Source of the DNA: Candidatus Nomurabacteria bacterium | Lineage (GTDB): Bacteria > Patescibacteriota > Minisyncoccia > Phycocordibacterales > UBA9973 | Assembly: GCA_026395995.1 (NCBI GenBank) | Contig: JAPLXQ010000010.1 | Span: 218,179-282,178, forward strand | Length of the DNA: 64,000 nucleotides | Reading direction: 5' to 3' | Shown here: positions 8,458-60,665 of the stretch, piece by piece | Numbering within the stretch: the stretch's first letter is position 1 | Layout: every line of letters begins with the position of its first letter | Notes under the pieces: model-generated | Told to the model about the DNA's origin: nothing | Seen by the model: the letters and a program-made list of their open reading frames with translations, nothing else | Databases searched by the model: none | Position numbers and translations under genes: made by a program

Positions 8458-8528
8458 TTGAGTATTTTACCATATAATGTCCTTGACACAATGGTTATTA
8501 TTGTTTTGTAATAAAAATTCACCTAACT

Positions 8529-8599
8529 CGCCCCACCCCGTCTGCTATGCATCCACCCCTCCTCATTTTTTACAAAAAAATGAGGAGGGGAATGGGGGT
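8529..8599. repeat. GC-rich palindromic mini-element (CT-arm/GA-arm family) in the lepB-pth divergent region
   Basis: ccccaccccg...cccctcctcattttttacaaaaaaatgaggaggggaatggggg: a 17-bp perfect inverted repeat flanked by CCCCACCCC/GGGGG, in a 30% GC background. Confidence 0.6.
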
Positions 8600-8629
8600 A
8601 AATTTTTTGAAATATGTTATCATAAATAT

Positions 8630-9154
8630 ATGAAATTAATTGTAGGCTTAGGAAATCCTGGTGAACAATATGAAAATACTCGTCACAATACGGGCCGTAT
8701 TATCATTGGAATGATAGAAGATAAAATAAATACAAAAGTAAAATTTTTAATGCCAGATAGTTTTATGAATAATTCTGGAAAAGTTGTAGCGCCACTTATT
8801 AAATCAAAAAAAGATTTGAGTGATTTGATAGTTATATATGATGATGTTGATTTGCCTCTTGGAAAAATTAAAATTTCTTTTAACAGATCTTCTGGTGGGC
8901 ACAATGGTGTCGGCTCAATAATTAAACATTTAAAGACTGAAGAATTTTTACGTATTCGTGTAGGAATTTGCCCTACGACTCCGACAGGGAAATTAAAGAA
9001 ACCAAAAGGGGAAGAAGCAGTATTAAAATTTCTACTTGGTGATTTTAAAAAAGAAGAATTAGTTATACTTAAAAAAGAAAGTAAAAAAATAGCTGAAGCA
9101 ATAGATATAATCTTTGCTGAAGGGAAAGATAAAGCTATGAGTTTATATAATTAA
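8630..9154 (+). CDS. pth: peptidyl-tRNA hydrolase
   Basis: MKLIVGLGNPGEQYENTRHNTG... canonical Pth N-terminus. Start moved to the internal ATG; the upstream part of the tracked ORF only translates the GC-rich element. Confidence 0.85.
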   Translation: MKLIVGLGNPGEQYENTRHNTGRIIIGMIEDKINTKVKFLMPDSFMNNSGKVVAPLIKSKKDLSDLIVIYDDVDLPLGKIKISFNRSSGGHNGVGSIIKHLKTEEFLRIRVGICPTTPTGKLKKPKGEEAVLKFLLGDFKKEELVILKKESKKIAEAIDIIFAEGKDKAMSLYN

Positions 9155-10977: not shown

Positions 10978-11030
10978 ACCCGCCCCACCCCTAACCCCTC
11001 CCCAAAATTTGAAGATTTTAGAGAGGGGAT
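10978..11030. repeat. GC-rich palindromic mini-element (same family)
   Basis: cgccccacccctaacccctcccc aaaatttgaagatttta gagagggg; shares the CGCCCCACCCC plus CCCCTCC/GGAGGGG architecture with 8529-8599. A further GC-rich patch lies at 10870-10915. Confidence 0.5.
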
Positions 11031-24656: not shown

Positions 24657-24710
24657 TTCTTGTATGAATTAAATTAATTAATTATTTGTTTAAAAACTTT
24701 TCTTGTGTTA

Positions 24711-24739
24711 AGTATAGCATATACAAACTAAAAAGTCAA
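24711..24739 (-). promoter_or_regulatory. consensus promoter module copy 2 (TTGACT-N17-TGCTATACT)
   Basis: Reverse complement reads gcTTGACTttttagtttgtatatgcTATACTt. Overlaps hairpin gtcaagcttttggcttgac (24735-24753), the probable terminator of the upstream minus-strand gene. Confidence 0.6.
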
Positions 24740-24788
24740 GCTTTTGGCTTGACTTTTTAGGCTTATTTATAAGGGTATTTTTACCTAA

Positions 24789-24813
24789 AATCCCCCTGAT
24801 AAGGGGGACAAAG
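24789..24813. repeat. small GC-rich palindrome (tccccc tgataa ggggga)
   Basis: Member or relative of the CT/GA-arm GC-rich element family; intergenic. Confidence 0.4.
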
Positions 24814-24826
24814 GGGGTTGTATTAG

Positions 24827-25579: not shown

Positions 25580-25585
25580 ACTACA

Positions 25586-25614
25586 AGTATAGCATATATG
25601 AATTTAAAAGTCAA
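25586..25614 (-). promoter_or_regulatory. consensus promoter module copy 3
   Basis: Reverse complement reads gaCTTGACTtttaaattcatatatgcTATACTtg; the -10 abuts the start codon (leaderless or very short leader). Confidence 0.55.
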
Positions 25615-25641
25615 GTCCTATTAATAAATTATTAAAACCCT

Positions 25642-26778
25642 TTATTTATGGCTTATTTTTGTTATTTTTTCTATTTGATTTCCTAGTTTGTTGTTTATGC
25701 TCTTGTAGAGTTGTTTTAAATGGTCAAAAATTAAAAATAGATGATAACTGTCTACAAAGTATCTTTTTTCAAATTTTAAAAGTCTTTTTGTTATCCATAA
25801 AGCAAAAAAACCAATTATTATTCCAAATAATACATCGACACCATAATGTTCCAGTGTATACATTGTTCCTATTAATTCAGCAACTACCCAAGGTATTGCA
25901 ATAATAGCAACAGGTGGCCAAAGTTCTATAATACTAACAACTGAGATTATACCCCAAGCCGCATGCATGCTAGGGAAAGTACTTATTGCCAATGATCCAC
26001 CTGCTGGATCAATCCAGTGATTTCCAATTGCTGAAATATTTTTTTGCATTCTTGGTGATATTTGCGTAATGTTGATTACATTTTGTATCTCTACTGATAT
26101 CTTAGTATTTAAAATATTTTTTAAATACATTGAATCTGGTGAAATTGCTGGAAATTTTATCCAAATAGGTAAACTAATTAAAAATGCTAAAAAATAAGCA
26201 ATTAGAAATTTTCTATAAATTTCTTTGTTTGAAAATAAGCTAATAAAAATAATTACAAGAATAATAGGGAATAAGTATATATAAGAATTATAAAATATTT
26301 GACTTAAAATATTTGAATGTATTATATGGTAAAAGGAAAAAGGTAAATATGAGCCAAATAAAACCTTATCAGTGTGCATCAAAAACTCAGAGACTTGTGC
26401 TGTGTGTATAGGGTCTGCTGAAATAAAGATTGTTTTTATTTCAAACGCCATTGCTACTGCGCTAATATATAGTATTCCAAATATAAATAAAAAACTTCTA
26501 ATATTAAAGGATGTTTTATTTTGATGATTATCTTTCTTATAAATTATAAGTATTATAGAGAATAATAAATATATAAAAACAAAAATAAGTATTACTGAAA
26601 TAATGTTATTTTCCAAAAAGGCAGAAATAAAATCTTGAGCTGAAGAATGATTAATACATTGTATTGTTTGATATAAATAACAGTTAAAATATTTTATTCC
26701 AATCATTATAAAAAAAATAATTGAAGGTAAAAGAATCACATATACTTCTATCGGAAATATAGAAAGAAATTTTTTCAT
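25642..26778 (-). CDS. polytopic membrane protein with C-terminal PAP2-like phosphatase motifs
   Basis: Many TM helices; SFPSMHAAWG resembles the PAP2 SGH motif. Confidence 0.45.
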   Translation of the reverse strand: MKKFLSIFPIEVYVILLPSIIFFIMIGIKYFNCYLYQTIQCINHSSAQDFISAFLENNIISVILIFVFIYLLFSIILIIYKKDNHQNKTSFNIRSFLFIFGILYISAVAMAFEIKTIFISADPIHTAQVSEFLMHTDKVLFGSYLPFSFYHIIHSNILSQIFYNSYIYLFPIILVIIFISLFSNKEIYRKFLIAYFLAFLISLPIWIKFPAISPDSMYLKNILNTKISVEIQNVINITQISPRMQKNISAIGNHWIDPAGGSLAISTFPSMHAAWGIISVVSIIELWPPVAIIAIPWVVAELIGTMYTLEHYGVDVLFGIIIGFFALWITKRLLKFEKRYFVDSYHLFLIFDHLKQLYKSINNKLGNQIEKITKISHK

Positions 26779-27450: not shown

Positions 27451-27483
27451 CGAATACCGTAAACCTTGTTTTCCACCTATCCC

Positions 27484-27516
27484 TCTCCTTTACTAAGGCG
27501 GGTGAGGTGCTTATTT
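27484..27516. repeat. GC-rich CT/GA-arm mini-element (intergenic copy)
   Basis: cctatccctctcctttactaaggcgggtgaggtg; closely related to the copy inside infB. Confidence 0.5.
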
Positions 27517-27847: not shown

Positions 27848-29347
27848 TTATTTTTGGACGACAGCGAAACACTCGATAATATCTCCGGCGACAATTTCTA
27901 TTTTTGATTCAATCATCATACCACACTCGTCACCTTCGAGAGCAGCACTCGTCTTTGTCTTGCCTTTTTCCAAGTTTACTATTTTTCCACGACCAATTTC
28001 AAAATCTCTTCTTATTATTTTGACTACTTGGTCTAAAATTATTTTACCTTCTGTTACTTTTCCTCCGACTATTTGTTTTTCTTTTGTACGAGAAAAAGCT
28101 TTTATTATTTTCAATTTACCAATAGTCTCTACTGTCTCTATTCTTGGGCGTCTCTTCTCCATCTCTTCTTTTAGCCAATCAGTCATTTTGTATATAATAT
28201 CAAAAGTAGAAAGTGTAATATTTAATTTGTCTGCTAGGTCGATGGCATTTTTATCAGCTTTCATATTAAAAGCGATAATGATAGCATTCTCTCCAGCAAT
28301 TGCATTTTTCACATCAGATTCAGAGATTGGTCCGATACCTCTTTGGACTATTCTAAATTCAGCACTTTCACTGTTTATTTTACTTATTTCTTTTTCAATA
28401 GCTTCGAGTGATCCACCAGCATCAGCTTTTAAGATAATAGGAATCATTTTTTTATCTGATTTTACCCCCTCTCCTTTATAAGGAGAGGGCTGGGGTGAGG
28501 TTCTTTCTGAATTTTTTTCTAAATCTTTTTTGTTCTCAAAAGCCATAAATTCACTACCGACTTTTGGTACTTTGTCGAAGCCTACGAGGCGGACAGGGGA
28601 TGAAAAGGTCGATTCACCTATTACTTTTCCTAAAAAGTTTTCCATAATACGTGTACCACAAGAAGCATCTTCTACTGCTACTATCATTCCTTTTTTCAGA
28701 CTTCCGTTTTTAATTATCAAAGTCGCTTGAATACCTCTTTTAGAATCCAAATTTGCTTCAAGTACAAAGCCACTAGCAGGTAGAGACGTGTCTCCGGTAA
28801 AGCTTTCCATTTCAGCTAAGACTAAAATCAAAGAAAGCAATTCATCGACACCAGTGCCGACTTTTGCAGATACCAATACAAATGGAGTTTGTCCTCCAAA
28901 GTTTTCAAGATATATTTCGTGTTCAGCTAAGTTTATTTTTGTACGTTCAATATCAGCTCCTGGTTTATCAATTTTATTGATAGCGACGATACAAGGTGTA
29001 TTACTTTCTACGATTGTTTTATAAGCTTCGATGGTTTGAGGTTTTACTCCGTCTTCAGCTGAAACCATAAGAATTGCAATGTCTGCGATTTTAGCCCCAC
29101 GTTCACGCATTTTAGAAAAAGCTTCATGTCCAGGAGTATCGAGAAAAGTTATTTTTTTATCTTTCCCATTTTCGTCTTTATGAATTACTTCATAAGCAGA
29201 AATGTGTTGAGTTATACCTCCAGCTTCACGGTCGACAATATTTGTCTTGCGAATATAATCTAGCAAGGTTGATTTACCGTGGTCGATATGACCCATCACT
29301 GCGACCACTGGAGGTCTCTCTATTAGATTGTTTTTTTTATTTTCCAT
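27848..29347 (-). CDS. infB: translation initiation factor IF-2 (short form)
   Basis: G domain [30 protein letters not shown], domain II, and C-terminal IF2 domains. Contains an in-frame GC-rich palindromic insertion (28458-28498). Confidence 0.9.
28458..28498. repeat. GC-rich palindromic mini-element inserted in-frame within infB
   Basis: accccctctcctttataaggagagggctggggtgagg; on the coding strand it translates to [13 protein letters not shown] in the inter-domain linker. Confidence 0.6.
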
Positions 29348-49393: not shown

Positions 49394-49440
49394 TAAATAA
49401 TATATTAACCCCCTTGTTCGCTGTTATGGCGACTTGGGGG
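49394..49440 (+). repeat. conserved 3-prime flank element / terminator-like repeat, copy 1
   Basis: attaacccccttgttcgctgttatggcgacttgggggttttaattt; near-identical copy at 50411-50458. Confidence 0.55.
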
Positions 49441-49464
49441 TTTTAATTTATTTAATTTTTCAAA

Positions 49465-50413: not shown

Positions 50414-50458
50414 TAATATTAACCTCCTTGTTCGCTTTTATAGCGGGCTCGGGGGTTT
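50411..50458 (+). repeat. conserved 3-prime flank element, copy 2
   Basis: attaacctccttgttcgcttttatagcgggctcgggggttttatttt. Confidence 0.55.
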
Positions 50459-50516
50459 TATTTTGTCTTCTTGTCTTAAATTTTTGTTTTCTGATATAAT
50501 AGATGGATATTCTATT

Positions 50517-54232: not shown

Positions 54233-54237
54233 TATTG

Positions 54238-54308
54238 CTGCCAGACCTGGACTCGAACCAAGATAGTCTCCTTCAGAGGGAGATGTCCTACCATTAGACG
54301 ATCTGGCA
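54238..54308 (-). tRNA. tRNA-Gln (anticodon CTG)
   Basis: Sense tgccagatcgtctaatggtaggacatctccctctgaaggagactatcttggttcgagtccaggtctggcag; U1-A72, loop ctCTGaa. Confidence 0.65.
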
Positions 54309-54430: not shown

Positions 54431-54495
54431 ATGTCCTACCATTACCCGCCCGCAACGCCTGAGCTTGCGATGGCGGGCGGGGACGATCTGGCAAT
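54431..54495. repeat. partial duplicate of the tRNA-Gln 5-prime region, itself split by a 38-bp GC-rich palindrome
   Basis: atgtcctaccatta + cccgcccgcaacgcctgagcttgcgatggcgggcgggg + acgatctggcaat reproduces 54283-54310 of the tRNA, with the palindrome replacing a single G. Confidence 0.6.
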
Positions 54496-54566
54496 ACTTT
54501 AACAGTAGCTTAAAAAAGCTAATTATTCAACTTTATTTTATTATTGTGCTATTATAGTACAATAAA

Positions 54567-58826: not shown

Positions 58827-60665
58827 ATGGATTTAAAGAAAATTAGAAATTTTAGTATCATAGCACACATTGACCACGGGAAATCTACCTTGGCTGATAG
58901 AATGCTCGAAATAACTCATACGATTGAGACACGTAAAATGCGTGACCAGGTTCTTGATTCTATGGAGCTTGAACGAGAAAGAGGTATTACTATCAAAATG
59001 CAACCAGTGCGTATGGAATATAAGATGCACCCCCTCCCAACCTCCCCCTTAGCGAAGGGGGAGGAGAACACCACATACACTTTAAACCTTATAGATACTC
59101 CAGGACATATAGACTTTTCCTATGAAGTTTCTCGTGCTTTAAAGGCCGTAGAAGGGTCTATTTTGCTCGTTGACTCAACTCAGGGGGTCCAGGCTCAAAC
59201 ACTTACTACACTCGCTATGGCTCGTGAGGGAGGGCTTAAAATCATCCCTGTACTCTCAAAAATAGACTCACCACTTTCTCGTGTAGATGATGTCAAAGAT
59301 GAAGTTATAAAGCTTTTAGATTGTGATCCAGATGAGATACTTCTCGTTTCTGGACGTACAGGCGAAGGTGTAGAAAATCTTTTAAATGAAGTCATAAAAA
59401 GAGTGCCACCTCCAGTCGAAACTTTTATAGACACCACTAGTTGCCGTGCACTTATTTTTGATTTTAAATATTCAAATCACAAGGGTGTGATTGTTTATGT
59501 GCGAGTTCTTGATGGAAAAATTTCCAAAAATGAAAATTTACTTTTTTCTGTTTCTAAAGAAAAATTTACCTCACTCGAAGTTGGAACATTTTCTCCAGAA
59601 GAAACTCCTTGTGAATTTTTAAAAGCAGGTGAGACAGGATATATTGTGACTGGTATTAAAAAGCCTGGTATTGCGAGCGTCGGAGATACTATTACATTAT
59701 TGAAAAATCCATTGCCAGAACTTCCTGGATATATGCAACCTCGCCCTGTCGTCTGGGCTTCAGTTTTCCCTGAAGATGCAGATCAATTTAACGATTTGAA
59801 AGCAGCCCTCGGCAAACTTCGTCTTTCTGATTCATCTTTTTCTTACGAAGAAGAGTCTAGTGGATCACTCGGACGTGGTTTTCGTTGTGGTTTTCTTGGT
59901 ATGCTTCATTTGGAAATTGTTATTGAAAGATTGAAAAGAGAATTTAATTTGGCCTTAGTGGTGACTACTCCATCTATTACTTATGAAGTGACTTTAAATA
60001 ATGGTAAAAAAGAAAAAATATATTCACCATATTTTTTCCCTGAAGAGGGAAACATAAAAGAAGTTTTTGAGCCTTGGGTTTTTGTAAAAATTATTACCCC
60101 ATCTATTTATCTTGGTCCAATAATGCAATTGCTTTTTGTGCATGAAGCAGAAGTGGGTGAGACAGAAAGTTTTGGAGACAATCGCTCATCAATATCACTC
60201 AAAATGCCACTACGTGAATTGATGCGAAACTTTTTTGATGAATTGAAATCTGTCTCTTCTGGTTATGCTTCTATTTCCTATGAAATTGCTGAAATGCGTG
60301 AAGCCAATGTGACTCGTTTAGACTTGCTTGTGGCTGAAGAAATTATCCCAGCTTTCTCTCGAGTTGTATCTAGAAAAAGAGTTCAAGAAGATGCTGAAGA
60401 AGCCGTAGAAAAATTACATAAACTTTTACCAAGGCAAATGTTTGCGACAAAAATCCAAGGTAAAGCCTTGGGTAAAATTATCTCCTCAAAAACCACTCAA
60501 GCTTTTATGAAAGATGTGACACAGCATATGTATGGAGGAGATATTACTCGTAAAATGAAGCTTCGAGAAAAACAAAAGAAAGGTAAAAAGAAGATGAAAG
60601 AGCGTGGACGCGTAAATATACCTCAAGAGGTTTTTCTTAAGATGATGAGAAGTGGGGAAAATTAA
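58827..60665 (+). CDS. lepA: elongation factor 4 (LepA)
   Basis: [21 protein letters not shown], LepA-specific C-terminal domain. Carries an in-frame GC-rich palindromic insertion (59028-59072) in the G domain. Confidence 0.9.
   Translation: [612 protein letters not shown]
59028..59072. repeat. GC-rich palindromic mini-element inserted in-frame within lepA
   Basis: gcaccccctcccaacctcccccttagcgaagggggaggagaac; stem ctccccctt/aagggggag; encodes [14 protein letters not shown] where LepA orthologs have only a few residues. Confidence 0.6.

Follow-up and report, generated by a model that had tools for sequence, protein, structure and literature searches.

How does a short GC-rich palindrome come to lie in frame within the gene of an essential translation factor in a low-GC bacterium? 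The question is raised by infB in a 64,000-nt stretch of Candidatus Nomurabacteria DNA (contig JAPLXQ010000010.1, positions 218,179 to 282,178 of the forward strand; here called the window), which has a GC content of 32.8% and whose proteins match metagenome-assembled "Candidatus Nomurabacteria" (Patescibacteria/candidate phyla radiation [CPR]) genomes. The gene (27848 to 29347, minus strand) encodes a short, 499-aa translation initiation factor (IF-2) without N-terminal domains, which shares 100% identity with an IF-2 listed at NCBI under "Candidatus Nomurabacteria bacterium" and matches E. coli IF2 structures with an E value of 1e-93. Here we show that the GC-rich feature in infB is a solo, AT-adapted copy of the BoxC/PIT/TMECO repeat class. 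It is likely that this copy is a non-autonomous selfish repeat, tolerated as a passenger in a permissive IF-2 linker, and that the spread of its family is tied to DUF559 nucleases, which would mobilize it.

A three-part repeat unit lies in frame within infB

A sequence-only reading of the window had placed a palindrome at 28458 to 28498. The palindrome is real: CCCTCTCCTT-TAT-AAGGAGAGGG at 28467 to 28489 forms a perfect 10-bp stem with a 3-nt loop, and this 23-mer had no match in 100 shuffles. Considering the Watson-Crick hairpin only, it folds as single-stranded DNA with -10.5 kcal/mol (z = -2.9 to -3.4). However, the proposed boundaries were a few bases off, and the element is not a plain palindrome. 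The hairpin is followed by CTG and GGGTGAGGT (28490 to 28501), and the natural unit comprises 36 nt (28466 to 28501) with a GC content of 58%. On the plus strand it consists of a pyrimidine arm (28467 to 28476), a loop (28477 to 28479), a purine arm (28480 to 28489), a second loop (28490 to 28492), and a mirror-repeat third strand, GGGTGAGGT (28493 to 28501).

The in-frame read-through in IF-2 had been recognized correctly. On the minus strand, within the infB open reading frame (ORF), the unit is read as ACC TCA CCC CAG CCC TCT CCT TAT AAA GGA GAG GGG. It contains no stop codon in the frame used and encodes a 12-aa peptide of a flexible type, with Pro/Ser followed by Gly/Glu. Alignment with E. 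coli IF2 puts this peptide in the G3-C1 connector. In an AlphaFold2 model built on a 60-sequence alignment (mean predicted local distance difference test [pLDDT] score, 79.8), the score falls below 50 only at residues 283 to 296, the N-terminal 46 residues aside; this segment coincides with the repeat peptide and sits between a helix (273 to 282) and the first strand of C1. The unit is thus predicted to lie in a disordered, permissive linker between G3 and C1.

Repeats of the BoxC or PIT (potential intrastrand triplex) type are reportedly the subject of earlier work by Hoyne and Maher from 2000 and 2002. The copies in the window share one architecture, namely a pyrimidine arm and, after a loop, a purine arm, followed by a short loop and a G-rich mirror of that purine arm. 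The TMECO motif was given as 5'-CCCTCNCCC N3-6 GGGNGAGGG N3 GGGNGAGGG (Holder et al. 2015, PMC4666352), and the infB unit fits this pattern as CCCTCTCCT-TTATA-AGGAGAGGG-CTG-GGGTGAGGT. Its arms CCCTCTCCT and AGGAGAGGG, with the loop TTATA (equivalent to the 10-bp stem with the loop TAT), are off the consensus at one of nine positions. This difference is compensated, since the three segments are altered consistently at the ninth triad (C to T, G to A, and G to T). Together with CTG and GGGTGAGGT, the arms give nine of nine valid purine-motif triads (G*G-C, A*A-T, T*A-T). A purpose-written finder for perfect three-part triplex motifs returned three sites in the window and none in 20 Markov simulations; in total, the 64 kb contain three perfect and three degenerate copies. 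By analogy with the single-stranded E. coli consensus, for which triplex formation in vitro was demonstrated by circular dichroism and nuclear magnetic resonance (PMC4666352), the infB unit presumably can fold as a hairpin and, in vitro, as an intrastrand triple helix.

The sequence-only reading knew of no documented equivalent. The class itself is documented, with 23 copies in E. coli K-12 and 3610 copies in a survey of 262 proteobacterial genomes (PMC4666352), and with 100 copies of the hairpin part in the genome of Enterobacter sp. 638 (PMC2869309). As in E. coli, the window copies follow the three-part plan with nearly the same sequence (CCCTCTCC..GGAGAGGG..GGGTGAGG) and a 3-nt second loop, there are many copies per genome, their presence varies among close strains, and decayed copies retain the hairpin. 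What does appear unreported is the occurrence in Patescibacteria and inside genes. The E. coli copies are "always located intergenically" (PMC4666352), a descriptive rather than defining trait, whereas the infB copy and a copy in lepA (see below) are read through in frame inside essential genes of a host with 33% GC. The window copies further differ from those of E. coli in having AT-rich loops and a ninth triad T-A*T. An Rfam scan of the window at gathering thresholds returned tRNAs only, and the element is covered by no curated RNA family.

The unit is not native IF-2 sequence

We compared the window IF-2 with 120 orthologs, all of which are about 500 aa long and have a hypervariable connector of approximately 18 to 25 aa at the repeat site. 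The repeat peptide was present in P0001, P0002, and P0003 only. Two related orthologs with 89 to 90% amino acid identity (P0004 and P0005) carry the unrelated linker DLKNNP(A/T)KINQNR(A/V)EDTG, encoded by AT-rich DNA, and a version of the repeat peptide with AT-rich codons was not seen in related taxa. Moreover, the same 36-nt unit and its peptide recur in many unrelated genes. These comparisons show that the infB feature is not native, as the sequence-only reading had proposed for a repeated element.

It is hardly credible that the unit is instead native linker, GC-rich and palindromic by chance, or an assembly artefact. A native origin would be in keeping with the hypervariability of the linker and its similar length in all orthologs, so that no length anomaly marks an insertion. 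It is opposed by the absence of chance matches to the 23-mer in the shuffles and by the identical unit in dozens of unrelated genes. Furthermore, infB DNA with the repeat recurs in independent assemblies from different samples (L003 to L006).

The similarity in length bears on how the unit arrived. The infB linker measures 60 nt with the repeat and 54 nt in P0004 and P0005, and these near-equal lengths indicate that the ancestral linker was replaced or deleted. Therefore, of the suggested RPE-like (Rickettsia palindromic element-like) insertion into a permissive loop, the behavior (in frame, in a permissive linker) holds, but a clean insertion into infB does not. Between the window and L003, the unit is identical at 33 of 36 positions, while the third-codon identity over the whole gene is 52%. 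Only this all-position comparison is suggestive of selection on the unit; at its third codon positions, 9 of 12 are identical compared to the gene-wide 52%, a difference that is not significant (binomial p of ~0.09, hand calculation).

In several other orthologs (P0013, P0019, P0041/P0094/P0011, and P0061/P0072/P0087), the connector holds other Pro-rich/Gly-rich or hairpin-like peptides (HPQPFPKEREKE; PLAPCLPAGRQA; GSSRSDL..; PPRPLGTPPSQGGE). This observation suggests that the IF-2 connector may have been invaded repeatedly by other GC-rich repeats.

A second in-frame copy in lepA reveals the mirror-repeat rule

The repeat is not confined to infB: further copies occur in the window and beyond it. 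By scanning the window for small GC islands and pyrimidine/purine hairpins, we found four related islands that the earlier reading had overlooked (59029 to 59064, 24791 to 24818, 8531 to 8599, and 10983 to 11028). The first is a perfect triplex-type repeat on the minus strand (59029 to 59064) that lies in frame within lepA (EF-4; 58827 to 60665, plus strand). Its minus strand reads CCTCCCCCTT-CGCT-AAGGGGGAGG-TTG-GGAGGGGGT, and the coding plus strand yields (M)HPLPTSPLAKGE(E). Its purine arm, AGGGGGAGG, lacks symmetry and is mirrored, with T for A, by the third segment, GGAGGGGGT; this matches a purine-motif triple helix and neither a direct nor an inverted repeat. Four G-tracts, as expected of a G-quadruplex, are present in several copies. 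However, a hairpin/triplex fits better, because even arms without symmetry obey the mirror rule and the pyrimidine arm is never missing.

The encoded LepA has 612 aa, compared to 600 aa in the modal ortholog, which has a 5-residue hairpin turn at the repeat site. Relative to a 95% identical ortholog (P0121; L007/L008), the copy amounts to a net gain of 36 nt (12 aa). Assorted insertions in the same loop were found in 49 of 120 LepA orthologs, and several of them end in ...G(Q)RPGEV or GAGGEV, with GGGTGAGGT in the encoding DNA. In L009, another Patescibacteria genome whose lepA is 71% identical, the loop contains CCTCACCCCAAACCCCTCTCCTTATAAAGGAGAGGG in the same frame as the infB copy of the window.

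The LepA loop is also the site of an unrelated insertion. In a 760-aa Patescibacteria LepA (P0172; L130:487-2769), a 166-aa PDDEXK_3 (GxxExxY, PF13366) domain is inserted in frame at this position. We considered it as a member of the triplex family and rejected this assignment, since the insert is bounded by its own inverted repeats, ACGCAGACTGATACGCAGA and TCTGCGTCAGTCTGCGT, and not by triplex repeats; it belongs to a separate element family, which makes two kinds of selfish in-frame insertion for this LepA hot spot.

Four more copies are present in the window. The one at 24791 to 24818 (plus strand) is intergenic and perfect, with seven triads, TCCCCCT-GATA-AGGGGGA-CAA-AGGGGGT. At the syntenic site, L004 and L001 have a different copy, of the infB type and with 10 triads, indicating that the repeats turn over while the three-part complementarity persists. 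Between rbfA and the tRNA-Cys gene, a 56-nt strain-specific insertion (27458 to 27513, plus strand) contains a degenerate copy, CACCTATCCCTCTCCTTTACTAAGG-CGGGTGAGGTG, whose purine arm is mostly gone. This copy, 1 kb away from the infB unit, had been called nearly identical to it. In fact, approximately 9 nt of the purine arm are missing from it (27474 to 27510), whereas the 12-nt pyrimidine arm, the GGGTGAGGT box, and some of the loop are retained. The 56-nt segment is absent from the syntenic sites of L004 (infB 97.7% identical), L001, and L003. At this sole clean empty/filled pair, we detected no target-site duplication.

Two more degenerate copies are located on the minus strand. The one at 8531 to 8599 lies 5' of pth and has a long loop (CCCCACCCC ... 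CCCCTCCTCA-15 nt-TGAGGAGGGG; eight of nine triads by eye). The other, at 10983 to 11028 in a divergent intergenic region, reads GGGGAGGGG-TTA-GGGGTGGGG on the minus strand, with a decayed pyrimidine arm. A mechanically called ORF (8477 to 9154, plus strand) spans the 8531 repeat; the actual gene is that for peptidyl-tRNA hydrolase, with its start at 8631 (MKLIVGLGNPG...) according to the N-terminal sequence. A TTGACA-N17-TGTAAT-like promoter at approximately 8484 to 8513 would place this repeat in the pth 5' leader. We rejected a role of the intergenic copies as intrinsic terminators, since no T-run follows them and PIT elements in E. coli have neither promoter nor terminator activity (PMC4666352).

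Copies in housekeeping genes recur across phyla

A pattern scan of one genome per species returned at least 120 stretches with the repeat. They came from nearly every phylum sampled (Proteobacteria, Chloroflexi, Planctomycetes, Bacteroidota, Cyanobacteria, Acidobacteria, Verrucomicrobia, and others), with GC contents from 36% to 73%. According to Pfam, copies inside genes lie in Mfd (two copies), the LigA adenylation domain, LeuRS, the YgiQ radical-SAM N domain, HsdR, an Eco57I-like methylase, a CN-hydrolase, a Nomurabacteria Dus, and the linker of an ABC transporter. Some lie within recognized domains and others in interdomain linkers, as does a copy in the lipoamide dehydrogenase linker.

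The exact 23-nt core of the infB copy was then used as the query for low-GC metagenome contigs. It was found in at least 131 copies in at least 120 stretches (GC, 31% to 53%). Among the matches listed, to which the following counts refer, 119 of 131 copies had the third strand 3 to 7 nt upstream, and 34 (26%) were located in ORFs, defined by a run of 50 or more open codons to either side. The C-rich strand was the coding strand in 30 of these 34, and 25 of the 34 read PSPYKGEG, mostly as the 12-aa peptide of the window. All 20 metagenomic host ORFs that were tested contained Pfam domains: HsdR, UvrC (three loci), UvrB, LigA, ValRS, IleRS, MetRS, a tRNA-binding protein, PNPase, TsaD, pseudouridine synthase, RsmB/F, MiaB-like, ThiI-like, DHFR, Mur ligase, glycosyltransferase, and Wzy-like. 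In the literature covered, which did not include subscription journals, we found no report of triplex/BoxC repeats inside genes or of their peptides. The occurrence of BoxC/PIT/TMECO repeats inside genes and in Patescibacteria appears to be new.

Two further settings of the repeat were observed. An approximately 130-bp element resembling a MITE (a miniature transposable element with inverted repeats), with the ends TAAGGAA..GAATTAAATAA and TTTATTTAATCCACGTTCCTTA, is present at many loci and has the exact triplex repeat with its third strand at the center (metagenome contigs of GC ~0.36 to 0.44: L134, L138, L152, L166, L169, L172, L174-176, L186, L193, L194, L212, L224, L227, and L246). In addition, the triplex repeat is common in IMG/VR contigs classed as viral (L261 to L380; at least 120 stretches, mostly of 50 to 70% GC).

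These data can be set against the view that the repeat is kept for a host function, for example as an mRNA or DNA structure by which transcription or translation is slowed at the boundary of G3 and C1, as a determinant of mRNA stability, or as a hot spot of recombination or mutation. We consider this unlikely. In its favor are the stable hairpin, a Shine-Dalgarno-like AAGGAG in the purine arm, and the location of both genic window copies in translational GTPases, as well as the 33/36 identity of the unit between lineages that have diverged by about 48% at synonymous sites. The strand bias among the in-ORF copies (30/34) also points in this direction, but it can equally be explained by which peptides are tolerated. 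A hot spot would be in line with the TMECO loci of E. coli, which are unusually variable; the motif was associated there with local genomic instability (PMC4666352). However, close orthologs work without the repeat, the host genes and insertion positions are very diverse, and other lineages have unrelated inserts in the same loops. The inactivity of PIT elements as promoters or terminators, mentioned above, also speaks against such a function.

DUF559 nuclease genes are flanked by the repeats

Repeats and DUF559 occur together inside genes. In L049, a DUF559 domain lies in frame in LeuRS between two repeat copies, and in two beta-proteobacterial MetRS genes a repeat-DUF559-repeat arrangement is inserted in frame before the C-terminal tRNA-binding domain. 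Using tblastn and a hidden Markov model (HMM), we searched 360 motif-selected loci (2.7 Mb) from among the matches listed. Each set comprised 120 loci, and a DUF559 ORF lay by the repeat in 6 of those from genomes, 9 of those from metagenomes, and 3 of the viral ones (18/360); the viral-classed contigs with DUF559 flanked by repeats were L342, L375, and L376. The distance to the repeat was at most about 100 nt in all but one case (L026, approximately 160 nt), and most genes had repeats on both sides. No DUF559 was detected away from repeats in these 2.7 Mb. A typical unit has the layout [Y-loop-R-loop-G3] - ~50 nt - DUF559 - ~40 nt - [C3-loop-Y-loop-R], which is that of the empty pairs of type A and type B in E. 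coli. Low-GC DUF559 units have double repeats on each side. The one DUF559 adjoining an AT-type repeat whose taxonomy was checked belonged to Ignavibacteria and not to Patescibacteria.

For a reciprocal test, nine DUF559 genes were picked solely by similarity to E. coli YcjD (hosts: Azospirillum, Sphingomonas, Picosynechococcus, Synechocystis, Neisseria, Deinococcus, Sinorhizobium, Klebsiella, and Pseudanabaena). All nine were flanked by triplex-type repeats, the arms of which were lineage-specific. In E. coli K-12 itself, TMECO #9 is located 165 nt downstream of ycjD, an annotated DUF559 gene; by our own estimate the probability of this by chance is ~0.004, and it brings the total for nuclease-selected genes to 10/10. 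In a survey of PD-(D/E)XK nucleases, VSR, DUF559, and DUF2726 form one clade, which includes a group I intron homing endonuclease (PMC3424549). The literature on BoxC/PIT/TMECO repeats does not mention a link to DUF559, and we found no paper on such a link in the literature covered (subscription journals excluded). The association appears to be new. Plasmids were considered as an obvious vehicle for DUF559 and rejected: the domain is rare there (34 of 72,556 records), and many of these records are mislabeled chromosomes.

Causality could also run the other way. The repeats would then spread by their own replication or repair (slippage, template switching, or gene conversion), they would merely serve DUF559 genes as homing sites, landing pads, or terminators, and the nuclease would have had no part in the infB copy. 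This is decidedly unlikely in our view, although several observations agree with it: DUF559 lies between paired repeats arranged like the empty pairs of E. coli, solo copies far outnumber DUF559 genes, the window has none, and the repeats are also carried inside the unrelated ~130-bp MITE. On the other hand, local mutation would hardly generate identical 35-nt units in unrelated genes and phyla, simple templated copying cannot yield mirror-repeat third strands, and the arms co-vary by lineage with the adjacent DUF559.

Other features of the window

Several features of the window lie outside the repeat family. Its richest GC island (54432 to 54498; 77%) is near a tRNA-Gln gene (54237 to 54308) and has a 9-bp stem, CCCGCCCGC..GCGGGCGGG, with a 19-nt loop; no Rfam family matched it at the gathering score. 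Two 48-nt hairpins (49402 to 49449 and 50416 to 50463) are 81% identical, and have the form AACCCCC..22 nt..GGGGGTT. T-rich sequence follows each, and the pair probably represents either two terminators or a further small family of repeats. A motif of approximately 32 to 46 nt (AAGTATAGCATAT..AAAAGTCAAG) occurs three times (1240 to 1286, 24695 to 24741, and 25585 to 25616). On the opposite strand it reads CTTGACTTTTT..N..TATGCTATACTT, and it is kept in L004 and L001 upstream of a 339-aa ORF; this motif looks like a strong consensus promoter. Finally, a 378-aa PAP2-superfamily ORF by the tRNA cluster (25642 to 26778, minus strand) is absent from the otherwise syntenic L004 and L001 and represents a gene-sized indel between close relatives.

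Discussion

The most probable history of the infB unit is that of a solo selfish repeat carried along by its host. It would have entered the hypervariable G3-C1 connector in an ancestor shared with the P0003 lineage, displacing about as much linker as it added. With 36 nt, an open frame, and a flexible peptide, it may have persisted as a passenger for the protein. Since there is little spacer DNA in the genome, genic copies would survive only in permissive loops, and the lepA copy shows the same pattern. As to spread, the repeats could serve small selfish units, which encode the Vsr-like PD-(D/E)XK nuclease DUF559, as cis-acting ends or as sites where they preferably land. Solo copies would be non-autonomous, MITE-like derivatives, copied via nuclease-induced breaks and repair.

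A wider reading, for which the case is finely balanced and which we put forward tentatively, extends this scheme to bacteria in general. The BoxC/PIT/TMECO repeats would be the cis elements of pan-bacterial selfish DUF559 units, and these units and their solo derivatives would insert in frame in essential genes (for IF-2, LepA, aminoacyl-tRNA synthetases, UvrB/C, LigA, and others) across phyla by recognizing structure and not sequence. Recognition of structure would account for the lineage-specific arms.

A number of observations weigh against a passenger mobilized by DUF559. The junctions in infB and lepA, which are blurred by divergence, show neither a target-site duplication nor a clean empty/filled pair. 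The window copies differ in arm sequence and hence are not recent copies of a single master. The 33/36 identity with L003 hints at constraint or conversion at the DNA level, and a purely neutral passenger is perhaps too simple. By hmmsearch, the 64-kb window contains no DUF559, and the infB copy is solo, not a repeat-DUF559-repeat composite; none was found either in approximately 60 kb of related Patescibacteria DNA, too limited a sample for its absence from the rest of the genome to follow. E. coli has 23 repeat copies and one DUF559 gene. Holder et al. saw no link of the motif to transposons, phages, or plasmids, and in their hands double-stranded DNA formed no stable triplex, nor did in vivo footprinting reveal one (PMC4666352). 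In relation to the DUF559 genes, the repeats could be ends, targets, or regulators.

The behavior of the repeat recalls several known systems. The RPEs, reportedly described by Ogata et al. in 2000, are palindromic selfish repeats as well, placed in frame in permissive surface loops of conserved proteins in a reduced genome and translated as an extra peptide. They measure approximately 100 to 150 bp, are not known outside Rickettsiales, and lack a triplex third strand. The infB unit is set apart from them by size and architecture: with 36 nt it falls short of the RPE size, and it is three-part and common to many phyla. We know of no sequence similarity between the two. As with MITEs and REP/RAYT, in which a transposase acting in trans mobilizes short non-autonomous repeats, short structured repeats far outnumber the linked gene, and the empty inverted pairs resemble deletion derivatives. 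Unlike in MITEs, no signature of terminal inverted repeats with target duplication was seen. Unlike in REP/RAYT, no copy has a 5' GT[AG]G-type (GTAG) head, a RAYT gene not having been searched for, and the linked gene encodes a Vsr-like PD-(D/E)XK nuclease (DUF559) and no known transposase. The repeat-DUF559-repeat insertions in MetRS and LeuRS resemble insertions of homing endonucleases or inteins, in line with the homing endonuclease in the VSR/DUF559 clade (PMC3424549). However, no splicing signatures were seen, the insert is apparently just translated, and the infB copy has no nuclease gene.

In summary, the repeat family is known but its host group is new, its in-gene behavior is undescribed in the literature searched, and its association with a nuclease gene is new and testable. 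BoxC/PIT/TMECO repeats have been unexplained since the 1990s and without a known means of spread. The association with DUF559 offers a testable mechanism, and with ycjD next to a TMECO copy, E. coli K-12 provides an easily tested organism. The repeats mark permissive loops that are usable for protein engineering, and in Patescibacteria proteins, inserts of this kind distort alignments and structure models as well as phylogenomic markers. Non-B-DNA repeats are not limited to spacers but are apparently translated within essential genes: in uncultivated low-GC bacteria, one 36-nt unit gives rise to the same 12-aa peptide in dozens of housekeeping proteins. DNA of a kind associated with instability in E. 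coli (Holder et al., PMC4666352) is found here within essential genes of a streamlined genome.

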